Both the position numbers and the translations under genes were made by a program. This document shows, piece by piece, positions 11,504 through 49,326 of a stretch of DNA of 64,000 nt. Under the pieces are notes generated by a model that did no database searches, was not told the origin of the DNA, and saw only the letters and a program-made list of their open reading frames with translations. The number at the start of each line of letters is the position of its first letter. Position 1 is the stretch's first letter. The DNA comes from a virus (taxonomy: Duplodnaviria; Heunggongvirae; Uroviricota; Caudoviricetes), in the IMG/VR virus record IMGVR_UViG_3300031998_000026, positions 51,528-115,527 of that record; one strand, given 5' to 3'.

Positions 11504-11875
11504 ATGATGGATAGCGGCTTCGAGCCCGAGTTCACGGGCCAGCACTTCGCGTGGGAGCTCGACCAGCTCAACGACCAGCTCGACGAGTCGATAGGTGCGT
11601 TGAGGATTGCGGGGTCGAAGAAGGCCGAGACCGAGAGGGACTACAGGGTCGCGCTCGCCAAGAAGATAATCGCTCTCAGGGCGCTGGGCACGCCCGTCAC
11701 GATCGTCAACGACCTCGCGAGGGGCGACGAGGAGGTCGCGACGCTGAGGCTCAAGAGGGACGTGGCGGAGTCCGAGTACTGGACCTCGCAGGAGGTAATA
11801 AACGTGGGCAAGCTCCGCGTGCGGACGGTCAACGACCAGATAGCGCGCGAGTGGGGCAGGCCAAGCAACATGTAG
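11504..11875 (+). CDS. Hypothetical protein
   Basis: 123 aa ORF immediately after the mini-element. Confidence 0.45.
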   Translation: MMDSGFEPEFTGQHFAWELDQLNDQLDESIGALRIAGSKKAETERDYRVALAKKIIALRALGTPVTIVNDLARGDEEVATLRLKRDVAESEYWTSQEVINVGKLRVRTVNDQIAREWGRPSNM

Positions 11876-25239: not shown

Positions 25240-25463
25240 GCACAGGCTTAATCGTTGCGGTCGTGACGCTTGTCATCGTGGCCGCGATATACATGGCCTA
25301 TACGATGGGCGAGATATCGGAGATGCGCCGAGCATTGGAGCGTATCGAGCGCAGGCAGAAGCTGAGCGACATACCCACGGAAAGGCGGCCAGACATAGAG
25401 GTGCTGCCGTATGAGTCAGTCACCCCACGCATAAATGCGGGGGCTTGCAATAGCCCCGACTGA
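25236..25463 (+). CDS. Small membrane protein with C-terminus replaced by the IscB-element insertion
   Basis: TM helix LIVAVVTLVIVAAIYMAY; the ORF reads into the element left end at ...EVLPYE|SVTPRINAG. Confidence 0.4.
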   Translation: MSTGLIVAVVTLVIVAAIYMAYTMGEISEMRRALERIERRQKLSDIPTERRPDIEVLPYESVTPRINAGACNSPD

Positions 25464-25647
25464 CCAGCCTGAGTGCTTCGGGCACTACGTTGTCCGCGTC
25501 ATGGCACCCCGAGATGCCTCCTCAGTCTCGGGCTCTGCCGCCCGTCATTAAACAGCCCGCAGGGGTGTGGGCAGTGTGGCGGGCACGACAAGCGCGGACA
25601 ACATTGGCGAGAGGAACATTACCGCCCTTCTGGGCGAGGAGGTATTT

Positions 25648-25650
<3 letters not shown>
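25414..25650 (+). ncRNA. IscB omega-RNA scaffold; the guide would be the roughly 16 nt 5' of the left end
   Basis: About 235 nt structured non-coding stretch directly upstream of and overlapping the iscB start, conserved in the iscB-less copy at 11167-11400. Confidence 0.55.
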
Positions 25651-26955
<1,305 letters not shown>

Positions 26956-31568: not shown

Positions 31569-32501
31569 ATGGTCTTTTTCGTAATAGCGGTGATATGCGT
31601 CGTGCTGGCAATCGCGATAGTCGCGAGGGGAGGTGTGATGTTCGACGAAGTCTCCAACGAACCCGCGTACGGCCGCGGAGTGGCGGTCGTGCCGCTCGTG
31701 ATCGCTGCGGTGACCCTGGCGATATCCATGGTCTACGCTCAGGACGCCGGCGAGGTGTGCGTGAGGATAAACATGGGCGGGTCGCTTGACGGGTACTCCG
31801 AGGAGGCGGGCTTCCACGTCAAGGCCCCGTGGCAGAGCGTCGTGAGCTATGACGTGCGAAACAACCTCATCAACCTCTACAGGGAGACGGAGTACACATA
31901 TGACGGTGGCGCGGCTCAGGGGTCGTGCGTCACGGTCAACGACAAGGGCGGCGCGTCGGCCGACATAGACCTCCAAGTAGTCTACTCGCTCGACGGCGAC
32001 TCCGCGCTCGCGCTATACCGAGACTACGGCACACAGGAGAAGTTCACGTCAGACGTGATCCTCAACGACGTGCGTGCCGTGGCGCGCGAGGTGGCCGGGC
32101 AGTACGACACGATTACGCTGCTCACCAACAGGGGCGAGTTCACCAAGGGCATGCGCGACGCCCTCACGAGGAGATGGGACGAAATGGGCCTCAACGTCGA
32201 GCAGGTGTCGATTCAGGACGTCCGTTACGCCGACTCCATCAAGCAGAAGTACGCCGAGGCGCAGGCCGCAGAGGTGGCGAAGTCGAAGGCGCTCAACGAC
32301 CAGGAGACGGCCAAGGTCGTCGCGAACACCAAGAAGATAGAGGCGCAGGGCGAGGCGGACGCGAACAGGGTCCTCACCGAGTCGCTCACCCCAGAGGTCA
32401 TACAGCAGCGCTACATCGACACGCTCAGGGAGATAGGCAAGTCAGGCAACCTCGTGGTGGTGCCCGAGGGGTCGACGCCCATGGTGAACGTTTCGAAGTA
32501 A
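31569..32501 (+). CDS. SPFH/Band-7 (stomatin/prohibitin/HflKC-like) membrane protein
   Basis: N-terminal TM helix, SPFH core, C-terminal coiled coil AEAQAAEVAKSKALNDQETAKVVANTKKIEAQGEADANRVL. Confidence 0.65.
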   Translation: MVFFVIAVICVVLAIAIVARGGVMFDEVSNEPAYGRGVAVVPLVIAAVTLAISMVYAQDAGEVCVRINMGGSLDGYSEEAGFHVKAPWQSVVSYDVRNNLINLYRETEYTYDGGAAQGSCVTVNDKGGASADIDLQVVYSLDGDSALALYRDYGTQEKFTSDVILNDVRAVAREVAGQYDTITLLTNRGEFTKGMRDALTRRWDEMGLNVEQVSIQDVRYADSIKQKYAEAQAAEVAKSKALNDQETAKVVANTKKIEAQGEADANRVLTESLTPEVIQQRYIDTLREIGKSGNLVVVPEGSTPMVNVSK

Positions 32502-32713
32502 TGGGCATCGACTACAAGGCCATCTTCTCGCGCGAGCTGGAGAAGATAGTCATGGAGACGCTGGAAGAGCACGGCATCGAGTACATATACGAGGACGAGC
32601 TGAACGAGATAGTCACCGACATCACGCTCGCAGAGTACTGGCCGTGCATACAGGAGCTCAGGCGGACGTACAAGATGCCGAGGGCGACGGACGGCATCCG
32701 GTTCAGGTGGTAG
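32501..32713 (+). CDS. Hypothetical small protein
   Basis: 70 aa; ATG overlaps the upstream TAA. Confidence 0.35.
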   Translation: MGIDYKAIFSRELEKIVMETLEEHGIEYIYEDELNEIVTDITLAEYWPCIQELRRTYKMPRATDGIRFRW

Positions 32714-32719
32714 GAGGGA

Positions 32720-32986
32720 GTGATTGCGATGATGATGGACAGGCTGTTCGACATACCGGCCGTCGCGCAGGAGCGCGGCTGCGGGACGTGCGCACATGCC
32801 GCGCAGAGGCACGGGACGCATGCGAGGGGGACGTATCCGCTCGTGTGCCTCGTCATGGCGTGCCCCGTGAGCGCGAGCTACGAGGGCATGGCAGGCAGGA
32901 AGGCGACGGACTGGCCGTGCAAGGCGGACTTCGACGACCTCGGGCCGTTCCCGAGGGGATGGGAGCCGCGCGATGGTCAGTCTTAG
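32720..32986 (+). CDS. Hypothetical Cys-rich protein
   Basis: 88 aa. Confidence 0.35.
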   Translation: MIAMMMDRLFDIPAVAQERGCGTCAHAAQRHGTHARGTYPLVCLVMACPVSASYEGMAGRKATDWPCKADFDDLGPFPRGWEPRDGQS

Positions 32987-33155
32987 GAACTGCTCCGGAT
33001 GCGAGTACCTCGTGGTCGACGAGGACGGCATGAGGTGCGCGTTCGTGGGGCTGTGCGTCTACAAGAAGGAGTTCGGCAGGCCGTACGGGTACAGGACCCC
33101 GGAGGACAAGATGCCCAAGCCCGAGAGGAGGGACGATGCCGGAGGACGAGGTTAG
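32973..33155 (+). CDS. Hypothetical small Cys-rich protein
   Basis: 60 aa. Confidence 0.3.
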   Translation: MVSLRNCSGCEYLVVDEDGMRCAFVGLCVYKKEFGRPYGYRTPEDKMPKPERRDDAGGRG

Positions 33156-33561
33156 ACGGCCGCTGCTGTTCGGCATGTCCAACGGCGGCGAGTTCGAGCC
33201 GGTCTGCGAGATATCCGATACGTCCCCTTTGTCTAGCGACACGGATGACGGGCCGTACTACGACCCCAGCGTCTTCGACGAGCTCTCGGCCACGGTCGAG
33301 GTCGGCCTCGAGGAGTACGGCGACGCGCTCGCCAAGCTGGGCACGGTGTTCCACGCCACAGGCAGTCAGATACAGCTCATGTTCGATCGCATCGTCCGCG
33401 CGCCGAGGTTCTGGTACATATGGCAGTACAAGTCGCACCCGAAGGGCAGGGGCAGGCGTCGCAGAAGGCCGTCCTGGATGAGGGTGAAGACGGTGCTGCA
33501 CGACGTGGAGGTGGAGTCGAGCGGAGACATCGCGACGTTCAGGGCGGTGATGCCAAGATGA
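33136..33561 (+). CDS. Hypothetical protein
   Basis: 141 aa. Confidence 0.4.
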   Translation: MPEDEVRRPLLFGMSNGGEFEPVCEISDTSPLSSDTDDGPYYDPSVFDELSATVEVGLEEYGDALAKLGTVFHATGSQIQLMFDRIVRAPRFWYIWQYKSHPKGRGRRRRRPSWMRVKTVLHDVEVESSGDIATFRAVMPR

Positions 33562-33908
33562 GCGGCAGGAGGGTGTGCGTCACCGGCGGGCGCGACTTCG
33601 ATGATGCCGCCCTCGTCCGCAAGGCTTTCGACGAGATCGGGCTGCGTGGCGGTGACACCCTCGTGCACGGCTGCTGCAGGGGAGCCGACCTGCTGTGCGA
33701 CCGCATAGCCCGCAACGAGTACGGAGCACGCAGCGAGGCGCACCCTGCCGACTGGTACAGGCACGGAAAGGCCGCAGGGCCAATCAGGAACCGGGAGATG
33801 CTGGGGTCAGGCATCGACGTGCTGCTGGCGTTTCCCGGCGGAAGGGGCACCGAGAACTGCGTTGCCACTGCAATTAGGATGGAAATCGAGGTGAAGAGGT
33901 ATGGATAG
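33558..33908 (+). CDS. SLOG-family / DUF2493-like protein (LOG/DprA-like Rossmann fold)
   Basis: CVTGGRDFDD...VHGCCRGADL...GPIRNREML...AFPGGRGTE. Confidence 0.5.
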   Translation: MSGRRVCVTGGRDFDDAALVRKAFDEIGLRGGDTLVHGCCRGADLLCDRIARNEYGARSEAHPADWYRHGKAAGPIRNREMLGSGIDVLLAFPGGRGTENCVATAIRMEIEVKRYG

Positions 33909-34527
33909 TGCTAACTATGGAACGAGCGGCATCCAAAGGCTCAGGAACATGTCACACGAGTTCGACGGTATGTACGATGGCGGCGACAACAGGAGCTTAG
34001 GATACAGGCTCAGGAGCCTCATATGTGACGTCGAGCGCGAGCTTAGGGAGTCGACGGACTTCTGCAAGAGGGTGGAGCTCGCGGCCTCGAAGGGTGTCGA
34101 CGTCACCCTGTTCGGGGCGGAGTACACGCCTTACCCGAAGGGCAAGGACGGGCAGCCCATACTCCTGGGCCAGAAGGTGTACGGCGAGGACGGCCGCGAG
34201 TGGACAGTATTGCGGATCATAATCGGCAAGCGCCACTGCGTCGTGGGCAACGACGGCTCCGAGACCAAGGAGATGCTGCCGGAGTGGCTTACCCATGAAA
34301 GGCCGGAGACGGCGCGCACGGTGGTGTCGGAGCTTGTCGAGGAGGCGTGGAATGCGTTCTGCCGAGGAGTCACGCTGTCCGAGCTGGAGGTCAAGGGGGC
34401 GTTCGACGGGTATGCCGATAGGCTCGAGCTCAAGAGGCCGTGCGCGTGCGAGTCGACTGGCGTGGTCGCCGACGGCAGGTACGTCGGCAACAGGTGGTTG
34501 GACATGGACGAGGAGGTACGGGCATGA
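33901..34527 (+). CDS. Hypothetical protein
   Basis: 208 aa. Confidence 0.45.
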   Translation: MDSANYGTSGIQRLRNMSHEFDGMYDGGDNRSLGYRLRSLICDVERELRESTDFCKRVELAASKGVDVTLFGAEYTPYPKGKDGQPILLGQKVYGEDGREWTVLRIIIGKRHCVVGNDGSETKEMLPEWLTHERPETARTVVSELVEEAWNAFCRGVTLSELEVKGAFDGYADRLELKRPCACESTGVVADGRYVGNRWLDMDEEVRA

Positions 34528-34685
34528 TCGCCGCGCTCTTTGATGTCGTGGGGGCGATTGCGGCCGTTGGCCTCGGTGTGGTGGTCATCACGCTGATGTG
34601 CGCGTTGGTGCTTTTCTTCGCGACGGTCATACGTGACATGTGGCACGAACTTATGCGCCACGACAAAGGAGGAGGACACCTATGA
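34524..34685 (+). CDS. Small membrane peptide
   Basis: MIAALFDVVGAIAAVGLGVVVITLMCALVLFFATVI. Confidence 0.3.
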   Translation: MIAALFDVVGAIAAVGLGVVVITLMCALVLFFATVIRDMWHELMRHDKGGGHL

Positions 34686-34984
34686 CACCGTGCCCCCAGA
34701 CGACCGAGCTCAGGGAGGGCCTGGACAGGCTCGGGATACCGTACGAGACGAGCGACGCCGAGGGGTGGGTCGACCTGGACGAGTGGACGGAGGTGTTCGC
34801 CCACCACGAGCAGACGGACTTCATCCACGGCGACAGGATATACACGGTGACCTACCATTGGGACAGGGATGCCGACGAGCGCAAGATGGGGCGCTCGCTC
34901 GGATGGCCTGCATTCATGGAGTGCGAGGTCGACGGCATGTCCAAGATGGTGGAGGCGTGGGAGCTCCTCGAGGAACTCGGGTAG
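34682..34984 (+). CDS. Hypothetical protein
   Basis: 100 aa. Confidence 0.4.
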   Translation: MTPCPQTTELREGLDRLGIPYETSDAEGWVDLDEWTEVFAHHEQTDFIHGDRIYTVTYHWDRDADERKMGRSLGWPAFMECEVDGMSKMVEAWELLEELG

Positions 34985-35173
34985 ACGAACAAATTTACTG
35001 GTTCTCGCGCACGTTGCGAACGCGTGTGCTACACTTGAAGAACACTGATGCGCCGTAGTATCGAGCATGGTAGTAGCACAGTCGTGCGACTTGGTACGCC
35101 TTTTTGCCATCAGGACTATCCGTTTTTCCAGCGACGAATGCGCCGCTGGATAGTCCTGCGAAAGGCGTGCCTT

Positions 35174-35890
35174 ATGTCAGACAATAGTGTTGTCAACCAT
35201 GGTGGTGTTGACTATAGAAGGGTTATGCGTGGTGGTTACTTCGTCTTGCATCCCATAGACGGAGAGCGTACGGATTACAGCGTGTCGATACCTGAGCATA
35301 GACTTGTTTATGAAATTGCCCATAACAAAAAATTGCCAAGCGACGTACAGGTCCATCATCTCAACCACGACAAATTGGATAATCGAGTCGCTAATCTGAT
35401 AGCAGTTACTCGCGAGGATCATATGCGCATACATGCATATGAGAACAATCATGTCGATCGCATAACTCGGAAGAGGCGTACTGACGACATACTTGCTAAC
35501 CTTGCGACATATGACGGGCAGATATATTACAGGAGGCTCAGGGACGGAAAATACGTGCTCTCACCGATTGTTGACGGGCATATCGATTTTGAAAAGACTG
35601 TATATGAGCACAGACTTGTCTACGAACTCGCCAACGGAATAGAGCTTGACGCAACGACGCGCATAACGCATATCAATGGTGACGATACAGACAATCGAAT
35701 CGAAAACCTCTCAGTTGACAAAACGCATTTTTCGCGGCCAAGCAAAGATGAGCTTAAAGGCTTGATTAAGGGATACACTGACCGCGAAATTGCTGAGAGG
35801 TTCGGGGTACGTAGGCATACCGTATACAAATGGAGAAGGTTCTATGGCTTTCCTCCTGAGAATGGCTATAGGAATACGAACGAGAAGTAG
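35174..35890 (+). CDS. Tandem double-HNH endonuclease with C-terminal HTH (homing-endonuclease-like)
   Basis: Two HNH_3-type motifs EHRLVYEIA...VHHLNHDKLDNRVANL and EHRLVYELANG...ITHINGDDTDNRIENL; C-terminal GYTDREIAERFGVRRHTVYKW. Confidence 0.7.
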   Translation: MSDNSVVNHGGVDYRRVMRGGYFVLHPIDGERTDYSVSIPEHRLVYEIAHNKKLPSDVQVHHLNHDKLDNRVANLIAVTREDHMRIHAYENNHVDRITRKRRTDDILANLATYDGQIYYRRLRDGKYVLSPIVDGHIDFEKTVYEHRLVYELANGIELDATTRITHINGDDTDNRIENLSVDKTHFSRPSKDELKGLIKGYTDREIAERFGVRRHTVYKWRRFYGFPPENGYRNTNEK

Positions 35891-35932
35891 TTTTAAGGCG
35901 TCCAACGTCTTGATAATAACGGATGTGATGCA

Positions 35933-37033
35933 ATGCAAGACTTGAAGATATACGCCAAGAACCTCGAGCGGGCGGCTCGGGAGCAGATAGACACGCTCGC
36001 GAGCCTGCCCGCCTTCGAGGGGGCGAAGATAAGGATTATGCCCGACGCGCACGCCGGAGCGGGATGCGTCATAGGGTTCACCGCCGACCTCGGCGACAAG
36101 GTGGTCGCGAACCTGGTGGGGGTAGACATCGGCTGCGGGATGCTCACGGTCAAGCTGGACGGGCGCGTGGACTTCGAGCGTCTCGACAAGGTGATCCGCA
36201 AGGTCGTGCCGAACGGCTTCGGAGTGCACGGCAGGCCGACGTGCGACGTGGCGTCCCTCGGCCTCAGGTGCTTCGACAGCCTCAAGAAGGTGGAGCACCT
36301 CGACAGGTCGATGGGGACACTCGGCGGAGGGAACCACTTCGTCGCTGTCGACGAGGACGCCGATGGCAACCAATACCTCATCATCCACACGGGCTCGCGC
36401 AACCTCGGGCTGCAGGTGGCAAACATCTACCAACGGCTCGGCGAGGAGACGTGCGACGCCGACGTGCCGAGGGACCTCAAGTGGCTTGACGGACAGGATG
36501 CCGATGACTACATGCACGACATGAGGATATGCCAGAGGTGGGCGTGGGAGAACCGCGAGGCCATAGCGAAGGCCATCCTCGTCGGAATCAGGTCGGATGC
36601 AGATGACGAGTTCCAGACCGTCCACAACTACATCGGAGACGACAACGTCATACGAAAGGGAGCCATATCCGCAAAGGGCGGCGAGCGCGTGCTCATACCG
36701 CTCAACATGCGTGACGGCTGCCTAGTCTGCACGGGGCTTGGCAACGTTGACTGGAACGAGTCGGCCCCGCACGGAGCAGGGCGCACCATGAGTCGCAGGA
36801 AAGCCAAGGAGACGCTCGATGTCGAGGACTTCAAGGCCCAGATGCAGGGCGTGTATTCCACGACGATATGCGAGGCGACGCTTGACGAGGCGCCGGACGC
36901 GTACAAGCCCGCACGGGACATCATCGACGCAATAGACGGCGTGACCGTCACCGTCGACGAGCACCTGCGGGAGGTCTACAACTTCAAGAGCACCGACGAG
37001 TCAGGCTGGCGAAGGAGGAAGAAACGCTCTTGA
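35933..37033 (+). CDS. rtcB: RtcB-family RNA 3'-phosphate/5'-OH ligase
   Basis: MPDAHAGAGCVIGF, GTLGGGNHF, HGAGR motifs. Confidence 0.8.
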   Translation: MQDLKIYAKNLERAAREQIDTLASLPAFEGAKIRIMPDAHAGAGCVIGFTADLGDKVVANLVGVDIGCGMLTVKLDGRVDFERLDKVIRKVVPNGFGVHGRPTCDVASLGLRCFDSLKKVEHLDRSMGTLGGGNHFVAVDEDADGNQYLIIHTGSRNLGLQVANIYQRLGEETCDADVPRDLKWLDGQDADDYMHDMRICQRWAWENREAIAKAILVGIRSDADDEFQTVHNYIGDDNVIRKGAISAKGGERVLIPLNMRDGCLVCTGLGNVDWNESAPHGAGRTMSRRKAKETLDVEDFKAQMQGVYSTTICEATLDEAPDAYKPARDIIDAIDGVTVTVDEHLREVYNFKSTDESGWRRRKKRS

Positions 37034-37086
37034 CATAGCGACACCATCGGGCGGTCTTCGGGCCGCCCGTTTCGATTGGGGGATGC

Positions 37087-37323
37087 ATGCGATTAGGCAA
37101 CAAGGACGTCCACATATCCGACGTCTCCCCGACCCTGCATCACGGCATAGAGTCCGAGTGCGAGCACGGGCACGTGTGGTACTCCACGGTCAGGGTGTAC
37201 TGCATAGACGACGGCGAGCACAGGCGATGGCTCGCGACTTGCCCCGTGTGCAGGCGGCAGACGGAGACGTGCGCGACTTACCAGGAGCCATTGGAAAGGG
37301 CGGCGATGGAGTGGTGGACATAG
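37087..37323 (+). CDS. Small Zn-ribbon protein
   Basis: CEHGH...CPVCRRQ. Confidence 0.35.
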   Translation: MRLGNKDVHISDVSPTLHHGIESECEHGHVWYSTVRVYCIDDGEHRRWLATCPVCRRQTETCATYQEPLERAAMEWWT

Positions 37324-37385
37324 GCACTATAGCTAGCAACATCATAGGGCGGCCTTCGGGCCACCGCTTTTTCTAAGGAGGGACA

Positions 37386-38504
37386 ATGAATCCGAATCGC
37401 AAGATGGCGACGATGAGGAAGGTGGACGCGATTACGCCCATCGACGGCGCAGACAGGATAGAGTGCGCGCACATCGGTGGATGGACGTGCGTCGTGGGCA
37501 AGGGGGACTTCGGACCCGGCGACCTCTGCGTGTACTACGAGGTCGACTCATTTTTGCCCACATCGGACCCGAGGTACGCGCAGTTCGCCGAGCGTGGCGA
37601 GAAGGTCATGACCATAAACGGCAACCCAACGAGAGGCCACGTGCTCAGGACAATCAAGCTCAGGGGCCAGATAAGCCAGGGCCTGCTGATGAGGCCACGG
37701 GACGTGCTGCCAGAGTCCGTTCCCGAGCATGCCTATCGGCTCATGTACGAGCGCAGGGCGAGGCTCGACGGCATATGCGGCGTGCGCGAGTACCACCCCG
37801 ACCAGAACTCACTTGCCGCCGGGTTCATAGGGAAGTACGACCCATACGTGGCACCCAGGACGGGATGCGAGCGCATCCAGAACATAGACCAGGACGTGTT
37901 CGACCTAATCAAGCGGTGCGTCTACTTCACGAGCGTGAAGGTGGACGGCACGAGCATAACGCTTGTCAACGACTCCCGACACGGCCGCATAAGGGCGTTC
38001 TCGCACAACAACGAGTTCGACGTGGGCGAGGGCCAGGGCAAGCTGGTCATGGAGACTGCAGCGCGGCAATGTCTCGACGTGTTCCTCGACGAGAACCCGG
38101 ACATAGCCATACAAGCCGAGCTATGCGGCCCAAAAATCGGGGGCAACACGCTCAGACTCAATGACTACAAGCTGTTTGTGTTCTCCATGTGGGACATGGT
38201 CGGCAGGCGATACCTGAACCCGTATCTGACGTACAGCCATGCCATAGCGAACTCGACGACTCCATGTCTCGACCTCGACCTCGACCAGTTCGACATGCCG
38301 CAGGACCTCATCGAGTGGACGAACTCCCTTCGCGGGTCGGTCACGAAGGATGCGCTCGACGAGGGGATAGTCGTGCACGTCATGGACACGGGCGACCTGT
38401 CAAAGGACGAGCAGACGATGCTTCGCAATGTGCTGGGCGAGCAGATGCAGATGAAGAGCGTCTCGGCGGCGTTCCTGCTCAAGAAGGCGAAGAAGGCCAT
38501 ATAG
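37386..38504 (+). CDS. ATP-dependent RNA ligase (covalent nucleotidyltransferase superfamily)
   Basis: Motif I KVDGTS (adenylation lysine), motif IV-like EGIVVHV; adjacent to rtcB. Confidence 0.6.
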   Translation: MNPNRKMATMRKVDAITPIDGADRIECAHIGGWTCVVGKGDFGPGDLCVYYEVDSFLPTSDPRYAQFAERGEKVMTINGNPTRGHVLRTIKLRGQISQGLLMRPRDVLPESVPEHAYRLMYERRARLDGICGVREYHPDQNSLAAGFIGKYDPYVAPRTGCERIQNIDQDVFDLIKRCVYFTSVKVDGTSITLVNDSRHGRIRAFSHNNEFDVGEGQGKLVMETAARQCLDVFLDENPDIAIQAELCGPKIGGNTLRLNDYKLFVFSMWDMVGRRYLNPYLTYSHAIANSTTPCLDLDLDQFDMPQDLIEWTNSLRGSVTKDALDEGIVVHVMDTGDLSKDEQTMLRNVLGEQMQMKSVSAAFLLKKAKKAI

Positions 38505-38586
38505 CTAACGACATTACGGCGGCCTTCGGGCCGCCGATTCTTTAAGGAGGATGGCATGAACGAGAAACGCAGCGGAGGATTGAGGG

Positions 38587-39450
38587 ATGCCTAGGAAACC
38601 TATAGACGTATCTGGACAACGTTTTGGGATGCTTGTAGCCAAGGAATACATAGGACTTGGAAACTGGATATGCGAGTGCGACTGCGGCAATGAGACTGTC
38701 GCTCGCAGCACTGCGCTCATAGGCGGAAAAAGGCTTTCATGCGGATGCAATCATCAAGAAGCGCTTCGGCGCGCAAGAGTTGACAGAACCGGGAAGCGAT
38801 ACGGGAGACTCACAGCCATCAGACATGTCGGAAAGCAGAACTGGCTGTGTCGATGCGATTGTGGCAAAGATGTAGTGGTAGATGGAAGAAACCTAACGTG
38901 CGGACACACGAAGTCATGCGGATGTCTAAAGCTCGAAAAATCAAAAGAGCTCAATAGAACACACGGATGTTCAAAGAGTAGGCTCTATCGCGTATGGAAA
39001 GGCATGCGAAAGAGATGCCTAAACAAAAGCGAACCGGCTTATAAGAACTATGGCGGCAGAGGAATCAAGATATGCGATGAGTGGCTTGACGACTATCAAG
39101 CGTTCCGCAATTGGGCCATGGAGCACGGGTATGACGAAAACGCACCCTATGGAGAGTGCACTATCGACAGGATTGACGTAAACGGCAATTACGAGCCAAG
39201 CAATTGCCGGTTCATAACTCTTGGCGAGCAATCGAGAAATACCAGACATTGCAGACAGGTTGAGGTGGTCGACTCTAACAACGACGTCATCGCAACATAT
39301 GGCACGGTCACTGAAGCAGCCGAACGCACAGGCATAAGCAAGTCGTCAATCTATCGAACATGCACTGGCAGACAAAAGAGCACACACGGACTGCGAATGC
39401 GATATAGATCCCGCATTCATGCTCAAGAAGTCGAAGAAGGGATAGGATAA
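38587..39450 (+). CDS. HNH/NUMOD-type homing-endonuclease-like protein (paralog 3 of 3)
   Basis: QRFGMLVAKEYIGLGNWICECDCGNE..., YKNYGGRGIKICDEW, IDRIDVNGNYEPSNCRF, C-terminal YGTVTEAAERTG. Confidence 0.6.
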   Translation: MPRKPIDVSGQRFGMLVAKEYIGLGNWICECDCGNETVARSTALIGGKRLSCGCNHQEALRRARVDRTGKRYGRLTAIRHVGKQNWLCRCDCGKDVVVDGRNLTCGHTKSCGCLKLEKSKELNRTHGCSKSRLYRVWKGMRKRCLNKSEPAYKNYGGRGIKICDEWLDDYQAFRNWAMEHGYDENAPYGECTIDRIDVNGNYEPSNCRFITLGEQSRNTRHCRQVEVVDSNNDVIATYGTVTEAAERTGISKSSIYRTCTGRQKSTHGLRMRYRSRIHAQEVEEGIG

Positions 39451-40472
39451 TGGGCAAAATAACCAGAAAGATACGCATCCCGACGGGATACCTGTTCACC
39501 GGGGAGTACTCCCACGGCGAGCTCGAGACTCTGTCCATAGGCGACTACGGCAAGCGGCACAACATAAAGGCCGACTTCCTCGGGTTCCACGACGACGTGG
39601 AGAAGGTAAGCAACGGCAGGACGGAGCCGCTGTCAGAGAAGTGGGTGGTCACGCTCTCGACCCAGTACGGCTGTCCGATGCGATGCGCGTTCTGCGACTG
39701 CCCCAAGGTGCCGTTCGGTGGCAACGCGACCATCGGAGACCTCAAGGCCCAGCTGTACAACGCGCTGGCGTGCTTCCCGGACGAGCATTACGCCGGCAGA
39801 CTCAACGTCCACTTCGCGCGCATGGGAGAGCCGTCGCTCAACGACTCGAACGTCATCGGCTTCTCCCAGTGGATGGCGACGCACAAGCGTGACATCAAGC
39901 ACGACACCGGGGTCTCGGTTGACGTGCTGCATCCCGTGTTCACAACGATGTGCCCGAAGAGCCTCGGACGGCAGGGGCTCAAGTCCGTGCTCGGGCAATG
40001 GTGCACCGTCAAGAACGAGACGTACGCAGGGTGCGCCGGCCTACAGCTATCGGTGAACTCCACGAGCGACGCCCAGAGGGACGAGATGTTCGGCGGGATG
40101 GCGATGTCTCTCGAGGAGATAGCGGACGTATGCTCGTTCCTGCCCGAGCCGCTCGGCAGGAAGTACTGCCTGAACTTCGCGCTCGCGGACGGGTACGAGG
40201 TCGACGTCGACCGTCTCAGGGAGCTGTTCGCCCCGACCGACTTCATGGTCAAGATCACGCCCATCCACAACAACGACGCCTGCAGGGAGTCAGGCATCGA
40301 GACGAGCCACGGCTACACGGACTCGACGTGGTACCGCAAGGCGGAGGAGGACCTCAAGTCTGTCGGCTTCGACGTGCTCGTGTTCGTCCCGTCCATGGAC
40401 GAGGAGGACGGGCTGGTGACGTGCGGCAACCTCGTGCTCTCCGGGTCTGAGGTCAGGAACGAAGTGCTTTAG
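39450..40472 (+). CDS. Radical-SAM enzyme, RlmN/Cfr-like RNA methyltransferase candidate
   Basis: CPMRCAFCDC (CxxxCxxC) and a downstream MGEP motif (ARMGEPSLN) as in RlmN; 340 aa. Confidence 0.5.
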   Translation: MGKITRKIRIPTGYLFTGEYSHGELETLSIGDYGKRHNIKADFLGFHDDVEKVSNGRTEPLSEKWVVTLSTQYGCPMRCAFCDCPKVPFGGNATIGDLKAQLYNALACFPDEHYAGRLNVHFARMGEPSLNDSNVIGFSQWMATHKRDIKHDTGVSVDVLHPVFTTMCPKSLGRQGLKSVLGQWCTVKNETYAGCAGLQLSVNSTSDAQRDEMFGGMAMSLEEIADVCSFLPEPLGRKYCLNFALADGYEVDVDRLRELFAPTDFMVKITPIHNNDACRESGIETSHGYTDSTWYRKAEEDLKSVGFDVLVFVPSMDEEDGLVTCGNLVLSGSEVRNEVL

Positions 40473-40520
40473 CTAGCGACATTTCGGCGGCCCTTCGGGG
40501 CCGCCTTGTTAGGGGGAAAC

Positions 40521-40796
40521 ATGGGAAACAAGCTCAGGGACGTGCTCTTCCCGACTCGCGAGCAAGCCATGGCGACACGCAAGAGGCTGCTTGGCCTTTT
40601 CGGCTTGCCGGACAGGCACGTCAGGTACCTGTGCGCCGCCGAGTTCCAAGGAATGCAAATCATACACGAGGGGTACGCAGAACAGCACACTCCATGCAGC
40701 TTCTCCGAGGGTCCCGGCGACTGGTACTGCTTCCGATTCGGAAATGGTGGAAGGACATACAGGATCACAGTCGAGGAGGTCGAGGAGGTCGACTAG
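40521..40796 (+). CDS. Hypothetical protein
   Basis: 91 aa. Confidence 0.4.
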   Translation: MGNKLRDVLFPTREQAMATRKRLLGLFGLPDRHVRYLCAAEFQGMQIIHEGYAEQHTPCSFSEGPGDWYCFRFGNGGRTYRITVEEVEEVD

Positions 40797-40797
40797 C

Positions 40798-41103
40798 ATG
40801 CACATATGCGCCGAATGCCTCGACTTCATGGAGTGTGGCGACTGGGACATCTGCTGCAGGCAGCAGGTCAGGCGCCTCACCTACGAGTACTGCGAGGCGT
40901 GCGACACGTTTCGCGAGGGACGCGAGATAAGGCCGGTCATAGTCACTGGGGAGGCGGTTGCCTTCAGGCCGAACGGCGAGGTCACGTTCGACGAGTGCGT
41001 CGCCAAGGCCGAGGAGCTCATCGCCGATGGCTACGAGGACGTGAAGATATGGGACGACCGCAAGGAGCAGCTGTACCCGCTGCTGTGGAGGGAAGGACAA
41101 TGA
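40798..41103 (+). CDS. Hypothetical Cys-rich protein
   Basis: MHICAECLDFMECGDWDICC. Confidence 0.4.
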   Translation: MHICAECLDFMECGDWDICCRQQVRRLTYEYCEACDTFREGREIRPVIVTGEAVAFRPNGEVTFDECVAKAEELIADGYEDVKIWDDRKEQLYPLLWREGQ

Positions 41104-41462
41104 GCATCGTGGAAGGAGAGGCGCCTGTCACGGTCGAGGTCTCCAATACCTGTATGCCGACATATTCCCATGTGCTGTTCGACACCGTCACGAGCACTAC
41201 GTACAGGCCCGTGCAACGACATAAGAGCCTCATACGCTGCGAGTACTGCGACATGTCCTACGACGGCGACGAGCACGAGAACTGCCCTCACTGCATGGCC
41301 CCGAGGCCGAGGGCAAGGCCGAGACCAGCCGTAGAGACGCAAGACAGCGCCGTCTTCTACAGGGATAACGTGGCGTACTTCACTTTCAGGGATGGGATAC
41401 TCACGAACAACGAGGCGAGGCAGATGGTTCCGGAACCGTATGGGACCGTCGACAGGAGGTGA
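41100..41462 (+). CDS. Hypothetical protein with Zn ribbon
   Basis: CEYCD...CPHC. Confidence 0.4.
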   Translation: MSIVEGEAPVTVEVSNTCMPTYSHVLFDTVTSTTYRPVQRHKSLIRCEYCDMSYDGDEHENCPHCMAPRPRARPRPAVETQDSAVFYRDNVAYFTFRDGILTNNEARQMVPEPYGTVDRR

Positions 41463-41704
41463 TTGCCATGGCTGAGAAGCTATACGTCCCCGTGTTCCAA
41501 TTTTTCATGAACGACGAGCTGGGCTTTGCGTACGGCACGACCGGAAGGGCGTACCTCACGTACGACGAGGCGAGGCGGTCCCTCCTTGACGGGGGCTGGG
41601 AGCTCCGCCGCTTCGAGGACGTCGTGTACGACGAGGTGCGGGAGTTCTTCTGGAGGGGCGACGAATCGGCAAAGATAGAGGAGGTGGTGGTCGTAGATGG
41701 CTGA
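41459..41704 (+). CDS. Hypothetical protein
   Basis: 81 aa. Confidence 0.4.
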   Translation: MIAMAEKLYVPVFQFFMNDELGFAYGTTGRAYLTYDEARRSLLDGGWELRRFEDVVYDEVREFFWRGDESAKIEEVVVVDG

Positions 41705-42080
41705 GGGAAAGGCCTACGTGGCATACGAGGTCGTCTACAAGGCATGGGACGATCCCGGCATACCGATTATACATACGTTCGTGTTCTCGACGTTCGACAA
41801 GGCCAAGGCCTTCGTAGAGTCGAGAACCATAGACGTCTGCAAGGTAAAGACGATCGACCCGCGCTATCGCGACGGAGAATGGGAGCGTTGGGAGGAGTGC
41901 GAGGACTTCTACGAAATGGAGGACGAGTGCGAGACCGCCCACTTCAAGCTGTCCCACGAGGAGGAGTCGATGTACTCGAGCCACTACTTCACCTACCCCG
42001 TCGTCGATAAGGACGGTGATGCGGTCGAGAGAGGCGTCACGCACTGGTACGTCGATGTGTGCGAGGTGGATGCCGAATGA
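41697..42080 (+). CDS. Hypothetical protein
   Basis: 127 aa. Confidence 0.4.
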   Translation: MAEGKAYVAYEVVYKAWDDPGIPIIHTFVFSTFDKAKAFVESRTIDVCKVKTIDPRYRDGEWERWEECEDFYEMEDECETAHFKLSHEEESMYSSHYFTYPVVDKDGDAVERGVTHWYVDVCEVDAE

Positions 42081-42646
42081 TCTGGTTCACGGCGGACACA
42101 CACCTCGGGCACGGGAACATAATCATGCAGGCTGGCAGGCCGTTCGAGAGCGTTGGGCAGATGGACGACCATATAATCGGCGTCATAAACGACATGGTCA
42201 CCCCCGGAGACGAGCTGTACGTCCTCGGTGACTTCGCGTTTCGAGTCCCAAGGGAGGACGTGCGGCGCTACAGGTGGCTCATCAGGTGCAACAACGTCTA
42301 TCTGGTTCGGGGCAACCACGACGTCCTGTGGCACGGCGACTCCCCCTTCCAGGCGGAGCACGGGTACTTCGACTGCCTGCACTCTCCGAGGCCGATGAGG
42401 CACCGCATAGTCATGTGCCATTACCCGATACTGAGCTGGCGGTCCATGGATCACGGGTCCATACACCTGCACGGCCACATACACGCAAAGGCCGACTACA
42501 ACCTCAGAAACAGGGAGGATGGCGTGTTCAGGTACGACGTGGGGGTCGAGGCCAACGGATACATGCCCGTCAGCCTAGACCAGATAACCGAGTTCTTCGA
42601 CGGCGTGGAGCCACGGAGGGCTCACCACAAGGAGGAGGGTCTGTGA
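42077..42646 (+). CDS. Calcineurin-like metallophosphoesterase
   Basis: FTADTHLGH, GDFAFR, GNHD, HGHIH metal-binding motifs. Confidence 0.7.
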   Translation: MIWFTADTHLGHGNIIMQAGRPFESVGQMDDHIIGVINDMVTPGDELYVLGDFAFRVPREDVRRYRWLIRCNNVYLVRGNHDVLWHGDSPFQAEHGYFDCLHSPRPMRHRIVMCHYPILSWRSMDHGSIHLHGHIHAKADYNLRNREDGVFRYDVGVEANGYMPVSLDQITEFFDGVEPRRAHHKEEGL

Positions 42647-42649
42647 AGG

Positions 42650-42952
42650 TTGGAAGGGTCGATGGAGAAGAACGATGAGGTCATTTCGATGAGCATCGAG
42701 CGCGACGGACATGTGTACGTCAGCCTTGAGTTTATCGGCAGAATCCTTAGGAACGCGATATGCGTGTGCCACGCCGTCAGGAGTGTCAAGGTCCTTTCCG
42801 CGCATGACCTGTGGGACATCTATTCAAAGATATGCGAAACGGTCGGTGTGGAGAACGACGTGTCGGAACCGCCGAACGTCAGGCTCATGGGCTCAGGATG
42901 GCCTGACGCGTTTGGGTGGTACGGCTTCTGCAAGTGGTGGGAGGAAGTATGA
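42650..42952 (+). CDS. Hypothetical protein
   Basis: 100 aa. Confidence 0.35.
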   Translation: MEGSMEKNDEVISMSIERDGHVYVSLEFIGRILRNAICVCHAVRSVKVLSAHDLWDIYSKICETVGVENDVSEPPNVRLMGSGWPDAFGWYGFCKWWEEV

Positions 42953-43326
42953 GACACTCAACGCCCGAGGAGAACGATTTCTACGAGGCATGGCTCACGA
43001 GCGAGTCCGTGCCGCTGTTCACGGAGGAGGAGCTGATGAAGGACGCACCGACGAAGAGGGAGAGGCGCGTCACCCGGAAGTGCGACTGCGGGTGCTGTAT
43101 GCTGGTGTTCGAGAAGACCGTCTGGGACGACGGCATGACTTGGTACGACGTGTCGGTGCAGGACAACCGCTACGACCATGACGCCAACGGTATCCTGAAC
43201 CGCATCAGGAACGCGCTCAAGGTGCTGTTCGGCAAGACTGTGTCTTGGAACGACGTGTTCTTTGAGAACCCCGAGGACTTCGACGAGCTTCTGTGGGAGC
43301 TGGACGAGCTGCGTGAGTGGTCTTAG
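42949..43326 (+). CDS. Hypothetical protein
   Basis: 125 aa. Confidence 0.4.
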   Translation: MRHSTPEENDFYEAWLTSESVPLFTEEELMKDAPTKRERRVTRKCDCGCCMLVFEKTVWDDGMTWYDVSVQDNRYDHDANGILNRIRNALKVLFGKTVSWNDVFFENPEDFDELLWELDELREWS

Positions 43327-43432
43327 CTAGCGACATGAGGGCGGCAGGGGAATTATGGCAAGGCCGTAGCCATAACTACACGTTATGGTACACTTGTGCG
43401 TACGGTAGAACACACGTACGTCAGGAGGCAGG

Positions 43433-43946: not shown

Positions 43947-44019
43947 GGGGATGTAGCTCAGTTGGAAGAGCGCCGGACTGTCTCTCCGGAGGTCGTGGGA
44001 TCGAGGCCCATCATCCTCG
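43947..44019 (+). tRNA. tRNA-Asp (GTC); CCA encoded at 44020-44022
   Basis: Hand-folded: acceptor GGGGATG/CATCCTC, D arm GCTC/GAGC, anticodon stem CCGGA/TCCGG with loop CTGTCTC, T arm GTGGG/CCCAT. Confidence 0.6.
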
Positions 44020-44023
44020 CCAT

Positions 44024-44097
44024 TGGGGCGTAGCTCAGTCGGTATGAGCAGGGGCCTGTTAAGCCTCGTGTCGCTGGTTCGATCCCAGCCGTCCCAG
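44024..44097 (+). tRNA. tRNA-Asn (GTT); CCA encoded
   Basis: Acceptor TGGGGCG/CGTCCCA, anticodon loop CTGTTAA, T arm GCTGG-TTCGATC-CCAGC. Confidence 0.65.
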
Positions 44098-44101
44098 CCA
44101 T

Positions 44102-44173
44102 CGCGGAGTACAGTAGCGGTCACTGGCCGGATTCATGCTCCGGTGCACGTGGGTTCGAATCCCACCTCCGCCA
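44102..44173 (+). tRNA. tRNA-Met (CAT), elongator-type; CCA encoded
   Basis: Anticodon stem CCGGA/TCCGG with loop TTCATGC; T arm GTGGG-TTCGAAT-CCCAC; no GGG/CCC initiator stem signature. Confidence 0.6.
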
Positions 44174-44264
44174 CCAGACACATCCCGCCCCCTGAGGCGG
44201 TGGCCGTTGCGCGGGCCGGAAATCAGCGCCCTCTTGCGGAGTCAGGGGAACCCGCATGCACAAT

Positions 44265-44337
44265 GGGTCGTTAGCTCAGCTGGGAGAGCAGTTGGCTCTT
44301 AACCATCAGGTCCTGGGTTCGAGTCCCAGACGACCCA
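44265..44337 (+). tRNA. tRNA-Lys (CTT); CCA encoded
   Basis: Acceptor GGGTCGT/ACGACCC, anticodon loop CTCTTAA, T arm CTGGG-TTCGAGT-CCCAG. Confidence 0.65.
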
Positions 44338-44341
44338 CCAT

Positions 44342-44413
44342 ACTCCGTTAGCTCATCGGGTAGAGCAGTGGGCTTTTAACCCTCAGAGCAGAGTTCGAGC
44401 CTCTGGCGGAGTA
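44342..44413 (+). tRNA. tRNA-Lys (TTT); CCA encoded
   Basis: Acceptor ACTCCGT/GCGGAGT, anticodon loop CTTTTAA, T arm CAGAG-TTCGAGC-CTCTG. Confidence 0.65.
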
Positions 44414-44424
44414 CCAGGCAATAC

Positions 44425-44498
44425 GGAGTCCGTAGCACAACGGTTTAGTGCGCTGGGTTGTGGCCCCGGATACGAAGGTTCGACTCCTTTCGGACTCC
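44425..44498 (+). tRNA. tRNA-His (GTG) with G-1
   Basis: G-1 opposite C73, acceptor GAGTCCG/CGGACTC, anticodon loop TTGTGGC, T arm GAAGG-TTCGACT-CCTTT. Confidence 0.6.
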
Positions 44499-44505
44499 CA
44501 TCCAT

Positions 44506-44579
44506 TTCCCCGTAGTTCAATCCGGCAGAACGCCTGACTCTGGTTCAGGAGGTACCTTGTTCGACTCAAGGCGGGGAAG
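44506..44579 (+). tRNA. tRNA-Gln (CTG); CCA encoded
   Basis: Acceptor TTCCCCG/CGGGGAA, anticodon stem CCTGA/TCAGG with loop CTCTGGT, T arm CCTTG-TTCGACT-CAAGG. Confidence 0.65.
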
Positions 44580-44768
44580 CCAGAGAAATACCGCGCGATC
44601 GCACTAGTACCTGTCCGGAGGGGAAACTGCGACTGGGGCCAGCCACACTCTGAGCTCGCGCGTCCATACAGGAGGTCGTAGTAAAGGTGAATACGACGCG
44701 TTGCAACAGGGGGGACGCTTCCGCAACACGTAGATGCAAGGTTCGAGTCCTTGCCCTCCCAACCCAAC

Positions 44769-44840
44769 AGGCTCTTGGTGTCAAAGGAAGCACGCTGGTC
44801 TCCAAAACCAGAGGAGGGGGATCGATACCTCCAGGGCCTG
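44769..44840 (+). tRNA. tRNA-Trp (CCA); CCA encoded
   Basis: Acceptor AGGCTCT/AGGGCCT, anticodon stem CTGGT/ACCAG with loop CTCCAAA, T arm GGGGG-ATCGATA-CCTCC. Confidence 0.55.
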
Positions 44841-44908
44841 CCATAGAAGTCACTTGAGGGGCGTGGCCTTCGCGGCTGCGTCCCTCTTCCGTACGAAGGA
44901 AGGAGTCA

Positions 44909-47950: not shown

Positions 47951-49099
47951 TTACGCAAACCTACGCTTGCCGTTTGATTCCTGCTTCGTAGGGCGCTCCA
48001 CCTCGACGGCTTCGACGCCCTCCACAGGCATGAGTTCGGGATAGTTCGCCATCCCTACGTTCAGTATGTTTATCGCCGCGTTCACGTCGCGGTCGATGAC
48101 GGCCCCGCAGTCTGGGCACTCGTAAGTGCGCTCGGAGAGCGGCATGTCGCGTACGCACCCGCAGTTTGAGCACGTCTTACTGCTCGGGTACCAGCGGTCT
48201 ATCCTGCCGACCCTCGCCTTGTACTCGAACTGGCTCGCCATCGTCGCCAACGACGCATCGGCTATCGACTTCGCCAGCTTGTGGTTCGAGCGCATGCCCT
48301 TGACGTTGAGATCCTCCAAGAACACGACGCCGTACCTGCGCACGACGTCCGTCGTGGCCTTGTGGATGTAGTCCGCCCTCATGCATGCCGTGCGATACTG
48401 GAACTTGGCGAGCCTGTCCTTCGCCTTGCGCCAGTTCTTGGAACCCTTCTTCTTGCGCGACAGATCCCGCTGCAGGTGCCTCATACGCCTCTCGCGCCTC
48501 CGATACCAGCGAGGATTCTGGACCACCGTACCGTCCGAGAGCGCCATGAGTACGTGGCAACCGAGGTCGATGCCCACGGCGGCTTGGCTTTCGCCCGCCG
48601 TGTCCGGCACCTCGCACGAGATGGCCGCGAACCACATGTTCGCCCTCTTGGATACGGTCACGTTGTATATCTTGGTGCAGTCTTGGTATCTCAGCGGCTC
48701 TGCCATCTTCAGTGTGAGTCCCTTGGGCAACCTGAGGTACCTGCCTTCCACCCTGACGGCCGAGCCGTCGATGCGGAATGAGTCTCTAACGCCCTTCTTG
48801 TGGAACCTCGGGTGCTTCGTGTTGCCCCTGAAGAACGACTTGAACCCCTTGTCGAGATCCTGTATCGCCGCCTCTCCTATCCACTTGGAGTACTCGTACA
48901 TCCACGGGAACTCCGCCTTCTTGCGGGCGTTGAACTTCTTCTTTATCGAATAGTAGTTGTGTCTGACGCCGTTGTCGTAGTCCTCGTTCCACATGCCGAG
49001 GCAGAGGTTGTATGCCGTCCGAGAGAACCCGCAGCAACCCCTCAGATACGACTCCTGCACGTTGTTGGGATATATTCGCGTCTTGAACGTCCGATTCAT
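47951..49099 (-). CDS. tnpB: TnpB RNA-guided nuclease (RuvC plus Zn finger)
   Basis: N-terminus MNRTFKTRIYPN; RuvC-I AVGIDLG; RuvC-II VVFLEDLNVKGM; Zn finger CSNCGCV...CPDCG; RuvC-III DRDVNAAINI. Confidence 0.85.
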   Translation of the reverse strand: MNRTFKTRIYPNNVQESYLRGCCGFSRTAYNLCLGMWNEDYDNGVRHNYYSIKKKFNARKKAEFPWMYEYSKWIGEAAIQDLDKGFKSFFRGNTKHPRFHKKGVRDSFRIDGSAVRVEGRYLRLPKGLTLKMAEPLRYQDCTKIYNVTVSKRANMWFAAISCEVPDTAGESQAAVGIDLGCHVLMALSDGTVVQNPRWYRRRERRMRHLQRDLSRKKKGSKNWRKAKDRLAKFQYRTACMRADYIHKATTDVVRRYGVVFLEDLNVKGMRSNHKLAKSIADASLATMASQFEYKARVGRIDRWYPSSKTCSNCGCVRDMPLSERTYECPDCGAVIDRDVNAAINILNVGMANYPELMPVEGVEAVEVERPTKQESNGKRRFA

Positions 49100-49326
49100 C
49101 GTTGCTCCTCGAGCAACTCGTCGTCGAGCCTCCATTCTATTGTGTCCCTCACCTTCTCGAGCCTCAGGTATTCGGACACTGGCCTGTCGTACACGAACCG
49201 CACGTCGTAGTCCGAATCCTCGCTCGCAAAGCCCCAGCAGCGGCTCCCGGACTCGATTGCGAGCACCAGGTTGACGTTCTTCTCCCTCTCGACGGACTCG
49301 AGCTCACGGATTATTGTCTCACGCAT
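49096..49326 (-). CDS. Minimal nucleotidyltransferase (MNT-like) fragment
   Basis: LVLAIESGSRCWGFASEDSDYDVRFVY is a Pol-beta-type GS...DxD motif; only 76 aa; stop abuts the tnpB start. Confidence 0.45.
   Translation of the reverse strand: MRETIIRELESVEREKNVNLVLAIESGSRCWGFASEDSDYDVRFVYDRPVSEYLRLEKVRDTIEWRLDDELLEEQR

Follow-up and report, generated by a model that had tools for sequence, protein, structure and literature searches.

A phage tRNA array linked to RNA-repair genes and a recurrent U37 anticodon arm on its tRNA-Asp

Phage T5's tRNA-Lys escapes the AriB nuclease of PARIS through anticodon stem-loop substitutions, a single stem-pair swap being sufficient (Burman et al. 2024, PMC11464382), and T5 tRNAs have also been studied against retron effectors (Azam et al. 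2024, PMC11555353). For the arrays of C1 mycobacteriophages, with about 33 tRNAs, a nuclease-escape hypothesis has been put forward, and targets of the host VapC and MazF are known (van den Berg et al. 2023, PMC10264068). In jumbo phages, RtcB and Rnl ligases supplement the phage tRNA sets, while T4 repairs PrrC-cleaved tRNA-Lys with Pnkp and Rnl1 (Iyer et al. 2021, PMC7824862). Here we describe an array of eight tRNA genes (positions 43947-44843, + strand) in a stretch of 64,000 nucleotides, hereafter the window, that spans positions 51,528 to 115,527 of the virus record IMGVR_UViG_3300031998_000026 (Caudoviricetes). The array is preceded by RNA-repair genes and contains a tRNA-Asp with an unusual anticodon arm.

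In the T5 case, a phage tRNA with an altered anticodon stem-loop takes the place of the host tRNA that is cut in defence. The resemblance of the window to T5 tRNA-Lys and PARIS lies in the window tRNA-Asp, which differs from a sister copy by two stem-pair swaps and one loop base; the isotypes concerned are Asp and an initiator instead of Lys or Tyr, position 37 is a pyrimidine, and the window is known from sequence alone. The C1 phages share with it a high G+C content, an array beyond what codon usage explains and substitutions in anticodon loops, whereas the C1 tRNA-Asp has the loop CUGUCGA (G37) in place of U37, and the window has 8+1 tRNAs. As in T4 and the jumbo phages, phage RNA ligases are linked with phage tRNAs in what could be a counter to anticodon nucleases; however, the ATP-dependent ligase is of the NgrRnl/DraRnl (Rnl5) type and not Rnl1 or Rnl2, no kinase turned up in those neighbours that were searched, and the source genome, of ~118 kb with temperate-type genes, is not that of a jumbo lytic phage. 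Relative to the nuclease-escape type, the tRNA-Asp is substituted with respect to its sister phage copy and breaks the purine-37 rule, and the loop of the initiator-like tRNA is unlike that of bacterial initiators in general, the reference being in each case a sister phage or a consensus and not the host.

Two readings of different strength are proposed. In the broader one, on which our judgement is evenly balanced, the array and the adjacent repair block form an accessory "translation-protection" island against cleavage of tRNAs in the anticodon stem-loop; it starts from the observed genes, their structures, linkage and variability, and the fact that the arm variants recur. This replacement reading is the nuclease-escape hypothesis already published (PMC10264068), and the idea is not new. 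The narrower reading, which is tentative and rather less likely to hold, is that the CCGGA-CUGUCUC-UCCGG arm of tRNA-Asp, with U37, is a widespread and convergently acquired phage counter-measure that would be a pointer to a broadly distributed and as yet undiscovered activity on the arm of cellular tRNA-Asp, at position 37 or in the stem, with the UUCAUGC initiator arm as a second such signature. Such an activity might belong to a nuclease or to an enzyme whose modification licenses one.

tRNA genes were called with ARAGORN on the whole window and with the Rfam covariance model RF00005 (gathering score 29 bits). ARAGORN returned nine tRNAs, the eight of the array and a separate tRNA-Arg(CCT), and all nine are canonical cloverleaves scoring 45-65.7 bits; the isotypes, anticodons and coordinates proposed in the initial annotation were confirmed by both programs. 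In tRNA anticodon loops U33 is near-universal and position 37 is almost always a purine. U33 is kept in all nine genes, and position 37 is A or G in eight of them, tRNA-Asp alone having U.

The tRNA-Asp(GTC) gene (43947-44022, +; 58.3 bits; CCA encoded) has the loop CUGUCUC within the arm given above. In the sister contigs L184 and L185, a near-identical tRNA-Asp backbone carries the arm CCAGC-CUGUCAC-GCUGG. Outside the anticodon arm the window gene and these copies are 97% identical, and five of the seven differences fall inside the 17-nt arm, where they amount to two compensatory pair swaps plus A37U. The identity elements of Escherichia coli aspartyl-tRNA synthetase (AspRS) are G73, G10, G34-U35-C36 and C38. 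All of them are retained in the window tRNA-Asp, which is therefore probably chargeable.

The same 17-mer recurs on other tRNA-Asp genes. It had 14 exact matches in IMG/VR, 12 of which are tRNA-Asp genes in big arrays of phages with 33-41% G+C. When position 37 was left free, the tRNA-Asp genes carried A (15 contigs) or U (12 contigs) and never G or C, while chance matches outside tRNAs numbered two each for A, G and T. In metagenomes, tRNA-Asp accounted for 45 of 114 matches, with 30 distinct sequences in loci of 33-72% G+C that usually have 5-22 tRNAs nearby; one of these genes is identical to that of the window. A pyrimidine at position 37 is essentially limited to tRNA-Asp among ~750 distinct tRNAs from all the phage-like loci fetched. 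Among cultured phages, U37 is present on another stem in an Erythrobacter phage, and Aeromonas, Agrobacterium and Synechococcus phages have A37. Canonical A37 and U37 tRNA-Asp genes stand together in several arrays (for example L151, L233, L296, L300 and L306). The U37 genes of low G+C resemble one another loosely, and the window and L151 versions have A37 genes as their nearest neighbours, indicating that the U37 arm originated, or was brought in, on more than one occasion. A full-text literature search found no prior description of U37 in phage tRNA-Asp, which is no proof of novelty.

Two metagenome loci (L249 and L273, both of ~50% G+C) have the exact U37 Asp arm on tRNA-Leu-like type II backbones (5' GCCGAAGTGG..GGTAGACGCG, with a long variable arm), each as a lone tRNA. 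From their sequences, these may be chimeras that would insert Leu at Asp codons.

The second arm variant belongs to the initiator-like tRNA(CAT) (44102-44176, +; CCA encoded). Bacterial initiator tRNAs have a mismatch at 1:72, A11:U24, three G:C pairs (29-31:39-41) and the loop CUCAUAA. The window gene shares with bacterial initiator tRNA-fMet the mismatch, here C1xC72, and A11:U24 in the ARAGORN fold, but differs in having two of the three G:C pairs (G29:C41 and G30:C40, followed by A31:U39) and the loop UUCAUGC (U32, G37, C38) in place of CUCAUAA. Of all array members it is the best conserved, with 74 of 75 positions identical in L185 and 99-100% identity across L184, L185, L202 and L203. 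The same arm was found on initiator-like tRNAs of two high-GC viral contigs, L158 (U1xU72) and L160 (C1xA72), and in one of the two a canonical initiator lies beside the variant-arm gene. Winther and Gerdes are said to have shown in 2011 that the enteric VapC/MvpT cuts initiator tRNA-fMet between A38 and C39. With C and U at positions 38 and 39 instead of A and C, the window tRNA would lack that cleavage site, as judged from its sequence. A role as tRNA-Ile2 for the overused ATA codon was considered and rejected, the initiator hallmarks being present and the A37 loop absent.

Other loop variants were seen in related arrays. C33 replaces U33 in tRNAs of L203 (2653-2977 and 3541-3631) and L001 (3091-3166, 3333-3406 and 3503-3593), with the loops CCGUUAA for Asn, CCGUAAA for Tyr, CCCGAAA and CCAGAAA for Ser and CCUCCAA for Gly; among 127 baseline phage tRNAs, C33 is present in 11.

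Three RNA-repair genes lie 1-8 kb upstream of the array on the same strand. The first encodes an RtcB RNA ligase (35933-37033, +; phrog_1075, 2e-122; Pfam RtcB, 6.6e-56), in which the motifs MPDaH, DIGCG, GGNHF, HTGSR and HGAGR align to Pyrococcus horikoshii RtcB, so that the catalytic Cys and His residues and the guanylylation site are intact. RtcB joins 3'-phosphate or 2',3'-cyclic phosphate ends to 5'-OH ends, and metal-independent tRNases leave 2',3'-cyclic phosphate and 5'-OH, the ends that RtcB joins. The second gene encodes the ATP-dependent RNA ligase of NgrRnl/DraRnl (Rnl5) type (37386-38504, +; PF21189 and PF09414; PDB 5cot, E 1e-35), a Naegleria/Deinococcus type with the OB domain at the N terminus. 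The third encodes a metallophosphoesterase (42077-42646, +; phrog_547, 2.5e-41; Pfam Metallophos borderline), a candidate 3'-end healing enzyme.

These genes are part of a variable block of 10.9 kb (32502-43432, +) that contains a YAcAr/SLOG protein, two HNH endonucleases, RtcB, the Rnl5-type ligase, a radical-SAM-like protein and the phosphoesterase. The two genes that flank it are nearly adjacent in L184 and L185, where one small open reading frame (ORF) separates a Band_7 gene (74% identical to window 31569-32501) from the gene upstream of the array (90% identical). Since these contigs lack the block at this position, the repair block and the array form a variable accessory island, in which the repair genes and the extra tRNAs vary together as cargo. 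The block opens with the YAcAr/SLOG-family gene (PF10686, 1.1e-12; 33420-33908, +). Between the RNA ligase and the array is a gene for a 340-aa protein (39450-40472, +; phrog_24834, 3.6e-106) with no Pfam match and 51% identity to a "radical SAM domain-containing protein" of Bacteroides phage Versailles; its product may act in the modification of RNA or of nucleotides.

In the proposed mechanism, the array would be transcribed as a unit of working phage-made tRNAs, and infection would trigger nucleases, of the host or of a competitor, with tRNA anticodon stem-loops as their cleavage sites. By one route, the phage would supply its own copies of tRNAs that serve split codon boxes as single species (Asp, Asn, His, two Lys, Gln, Trp and the initiator Met), of which at least two, through the Asp arm (U37 and swapped stem pairs) and the initiator-like UUCAUGC arm, would lack the site of nuclease recognition or cleavage. 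By the other, cleaved tRNAs would be re-ligated by RtcB directly, or by the ATP-dependent ligase after end-healing. The model thus supposes expression, aminoacylation, a nuclease and resistance to that nuclease. tRNA-Arg(CCT), located elsewhere in the genome, more likely serves the AGG usage of the phage itself. The initial annotation had left the choice between decoy and replacement tRNAs; all eight array genes keep the cloverleaf and identity elements, which fits working replacement tRNAs rather than decoys. Replacement is plausible in view of these features, the RNA ligases and the oddities of the Asp and CAT arms, and the decoy alternative found no support.

A phage could also carry such genes to top up tRNAs that limit its own translation, through codon or amino-acid usage unlike that of the host or through host tRNA shut-off, with no nuclease involved, which we consider fairly unlikely. 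Codon counts from two agreeing gene sets (calls filtered by G+C at third codon positions, GC3, and the source's independent calls) gave AGG as 36-49% of Arg codons (22-36 per 1000) and ATA as 35-51% of Ile, with AAG at ~90% of Lys and GAG at ~88% of Glu. The heavily used AGG (42% of Arg codons) is read by tRNA-Arg(CCT), which fits the demand, and AGG is lower in the best TnpB-matched cellular contigs (11-18% of Arg; weak proxies, not the host). GAC, AAG, AAC, ATG, TGG and CAC are all within the 20 most used codons, and all nine tRNAs read split codon boxes, usually served by a single tRNA species. However, codon demand fails as a general explanation because tRNA-Lys(TTT) is encoded although AAA is rare (3-5 per 1000 codons), because GAG (the commonest codon), TAC and the overused ATA (47% of Ile codons) have no phage tRNA, and because late genes are not enriched, the codons of the nine tRNAs making up 21% in late/lysis genes against 27-28% in early and right-arm genes. 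Judged by phage codon usage, codon or late-gene compensation thus explains only tRNA-Arg(CCT) and not the set, and it leaves the anticodon-arm variants and the linked RNA ligases unexplained. The earlier statement that the choice of tRNAs is not due to AT-rich codon compensation holds, while a match between the tRNAs and phage codon usage, which the initial annotation had set against its own reading, was found for tRNA-Arg(CCT) and not for the set as a whole.

It is distinctly unlikely, in our view, that the array consists of largely neutral mobile tRNA cassettes, gained, lost and shuffled by recombination that the many HNH, IscB and TnpB elements nearby assist, and that the odd arms reflect drift toward pseudogenes. 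Such turnover would account for array contents that differ among relatives with flanking proteins 70-96% identical, for TnpB genes that adjoin arrays (within the L184 array, and beside the homologue of the flanking gene in L204-L206), and for a pseudo-tRNA and a His gene lacking one C of CCA in the window. Nevertheless, the occurrence of one and the same 17-nt Asp arm on 30 or more backbones, with only A or U at position 37, is not drift, the variant initiator is the most conserved tRNA, and all eight genes score high in the covariance model. Very improbable is self-immunity, in which the phage or prophage encodes its own tRNA nuclease against the host or superinfecting phages and is protected by the variant tRNAs and ligases. 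The temperate-type genes and the many uncharacterised phage genes would suit it, and systems that target tRNAs, such as PARIS, are frequent in prophages and satellites (PMC11464382), but no nuclease or defence match was obtained in ten proteins searched with PADLOC or ten with Pfam (four shared), a C5 DNA methylase being the only match. Together, the rival explanations keep substantial weight.

Several observations weigh against the translation-protection reading or against the U37 arm as a counter-measure. Array composition varies among close relatives, which fits neutral cassette turnover too: L184 and L185 have Asp-Asn-Met-Gln(-Trp), L202 has the same tRNA set as the window, and L203 has Asn-Met-Tyr-Arg(ACG)-His-Gln-Ser x4-Cys. 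The anticodon loops are ordinary in five of the eight array tRNAs, and the array shows signs of decay, namely a degenerate tRNA-like element and the damaged CCA of tRNA-His. If the tRNA-Asp changes are counted as independent events (three in the arm and two outside), their clustering taken by itself is not significant (P~0.08, an estimate), and the exact-pattern searches select the 17-mer by design, so that they measure recurrence and not frequency. An anticodon nuclease with activity against tRNA-Asp, whether close to position 37 or in the stem, is not known. The array neighbours searched, several small ORFs without matches among them, yielded no polynucleotide kinase that would complete a heal-and-seal pathway. 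The best cellular TnpB relatives in GTDB genomes, on Collinsella and Bifidobacterium contigs from metagenome-assembled genomes, are only 58% identical, and the phage tRNAs were compared with those of sister phages rather than of a host.

The enrichment for classical anticodon-nuclease targets claimed in the initial annotation also deserves little weight. At least three of the four tRNAs with GUN anticodons among nine of ~43 anticodons gives P=0.024, uncorrected and with the grouping chosen post hoc, and the grouping is likewise post hoc for the presence of all nine tRNAs in split codon boxes (P=0.0006). The genome loci fetched contained only ten cellular tRNAs, too small a number for a baseline. 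Known tRNA nucleases are now so many that most isotypes are the target of some nuclease, while colicin E5 and PrrC are enterobacterial. Relatives have other sets, and among 127 distinct tRNAs close to RtcB genes of IMG/VR, most are Met, Gln and Ser, with no Asp, Lys or His.

The remaining array members, all on the + strand, are tRNA-Asn(GTT) (44024-44100; canonical loop CUGUUAA), tRNA-Lys(CTT) (44265-44340; 65.7 bits), tRNA-Lys(TTT) (44342-44416), tRNA-His(GTG) (44425-44499, or 44426-44499 in ARAGORN; encoded G-1, loop UUGUGGC), tRNA-Gln(CTG) (44506-44582; loop CUCUGGU) and tRNA-Trp(CCA) (44769-44843; 45 bits, loop CUCCAAA). CCA is encoded by seven of the eight array genes, in agreement with the earlier remark that most do so; the exception is tRNA-His, one C short (3' end ..CGGACTC-C-CA-t), whose copies in L202 and L203 have the full CCA. 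Compared with the sister contigs, tRNA-Asn is identical at 64 of 77 positions, with differences in the anticodon stem and D-loop, tRNA-Gln differs from L185 at positions 32 and 38, and tRNA-Trp has a different backbone (51 of 78 identical). tRNA-Lys(CTT) is also present in L202 and not in L184 or L185. Both tRNA-Lys genes have a U28.U42 mismatch in the anticodon stem; the Lys(TTT) arm with this mismatch is shared with just two further phage arrays (L197 and L198), and as a recurrent signature it is weak, tRNAs being two of 16 pattern matches. On the source contig, the flanks of the window (9 kb upstream and 2.2 kb downstream) yielded no additional tRNAs.

The tRNA-Arg(CCT) gene (2613-2688, +; 63.8 bits; loop CUCCUAA; CCA absent) is isolated, ~1 kb from genes for a CI-like repressor (968-1672, -) and Cro-like proteins, and is adjoined by a 413-aa ORF without Pfam match (L082 11027-12268). 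Codon usage in the window and its flanks (L082 and L083) is very unusual for 60.6% G+C, the measured value for the window (62% in the initial annotation), and resembles thermophile-type usage. The coding strand is purine-loaded, with a GC skew of about +0.13 and an AT skew of about +0.17.

The second gap of the array, between tRNA-Gln and tRNA-Trp, is 186 nt long and contains a ninth, non-canonical and degenerate tRNA-like element (44671-44760, +; 21.7 bits, below the threshold of 29; CCA absent) that the initial annotation had overlooked. ARAGORN called it only as Gly-GCC with a 19-nt intron, when introns were allowed, or as Leu-CAA at a lowered threshold. In the minimum-energy fold it has acceptor, D and T arms, and a rod of 13 bp stands where the anticodon arm would be; in an alternative reading it is a tRNA-Gly(GCC) interrupted by a 19-nt insertion. 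It is probably a pseudo-tRNA. The element is missing from L184, L185 and L202, and an exact-match search of IMG/VR found no relative. An intron-bearing tRNA needing RtcB was rejected, the element having one 4-nt bulge in a continuous 13-bp rod and no bulge-helix-bulge, as was a Y RNA/YrlA, for which the best RF02553 scores (19.8-24.7 bits, below 69) fell on ordinary tRNA junctions instead.

An 88-nt spacer (44177-44264, +) separates the initiator-like gene from tRNA-Lys(CTT) and is conserved like the tRNAs, with 91% identity to the sister contigs against 80% for the DNA of the upstream gene. It was rejected as a structured small RNA or a promoter, with no stable fold (z +1.37) and no promoter-like site. 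Directly 3' of the array, a G+C-rich hairpin of 13 bp (44856-44886, +; -28.8 kcal/mol, z -2.9) may be a transcript end or a processing site; it has no T-run, and a scan for terminators did not report it.

The window is identical to part of the ENA metagenome contig ERZ27257204:k141_4222975 (117,767 bp), which was used for the flanks. Window and flanks encode a CI-like repressor (HTH_3 and Peptidase_S24), RecT, YqaJ, RusA, a holin and a GH25 endolysin, as well as SSB, a DnaC-like loader, a sliding clamp, a C5 DNA methylase and IscB-like and TnpB-like genes. Given its repressor, recombination, holin/endolysin and replication genes, the source is a large phage with temperate-type genes. Among cultured phages no close relative was found, with no megablast match, RtcB at no more than 48.8% identity and the radical-SAM-like protein at no more than 51%. 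A search of IMG/VR with the gene upstream of the array gave no relatives; with RtcB the best was L001 (57% identity), which has a different array of ten tRNAs. Collinsella and Bifidobacterium were rejected as hosts, the TnpB identity being only 58% and their AGG and ATA usage unlike that of the phage.

Mobile and other elements were also observed. A HEARO RNA (RF02033; 175.9 bits; 25415-25622, +) is located at the 5' end of a 462-aa RRXRR and HNH (IscB-like) gene (25567-26955). A second one (RF02033; 141.9 bits; 11167-11376, +) is followed by no full-length IscB-like ORF, the next being of 123 aa (11504-11875), and may be a solo or decayed element. A TnpB/IS605 OrfB-like gene (47951-49135, -; phrog_506, 5.9e-110) marks the switch point of gene strand 3 kb past the array. 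In L184 a different TnpB (32% identical to that of the window) is inserted directly within the array, and in L204-L206, which have no tRNAs, a TnpB gene is found just upstream of the homologue of the array-flanking gene, accompanied by a Y1 transposase in L204 and L205. The C5 cytosine DNA methylase appears to be split over two consecutive ORFs (16437-17351 and 17400-18023, +), with an N-terminal Pfam match (6.2e-40) in the first and the C-terminal motif in the second. L183, a distant relative of 32% G+C with a flanking protein 54% identical, encodes a TROVE (Ro60-like) protein (1096-2529) and has an 81-nt match to the Rfam tmRNA family (59.2 bits; 8592-8672) within its tRNA array.

Phage tRNA arrays, their link to RNA ligases and nuclease escape have already been described, and to these the array adds one uncultured example. 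The part worth following is the recurrent U37 arm of tRNA-Asp, with the variant initiator arm in second place. The U37 arm is a concrete and testable signature, present on dozens of unrelated backbones, and in the window lineage it has replaced the canonical arm on an otherwise unchanged tRNA. If U37 reflects escape, it would name a target isotype and a site that lack a known bacterial immune nuclease, and A37 and U37 arms would then offer a sequence-only probe to find the defence system.

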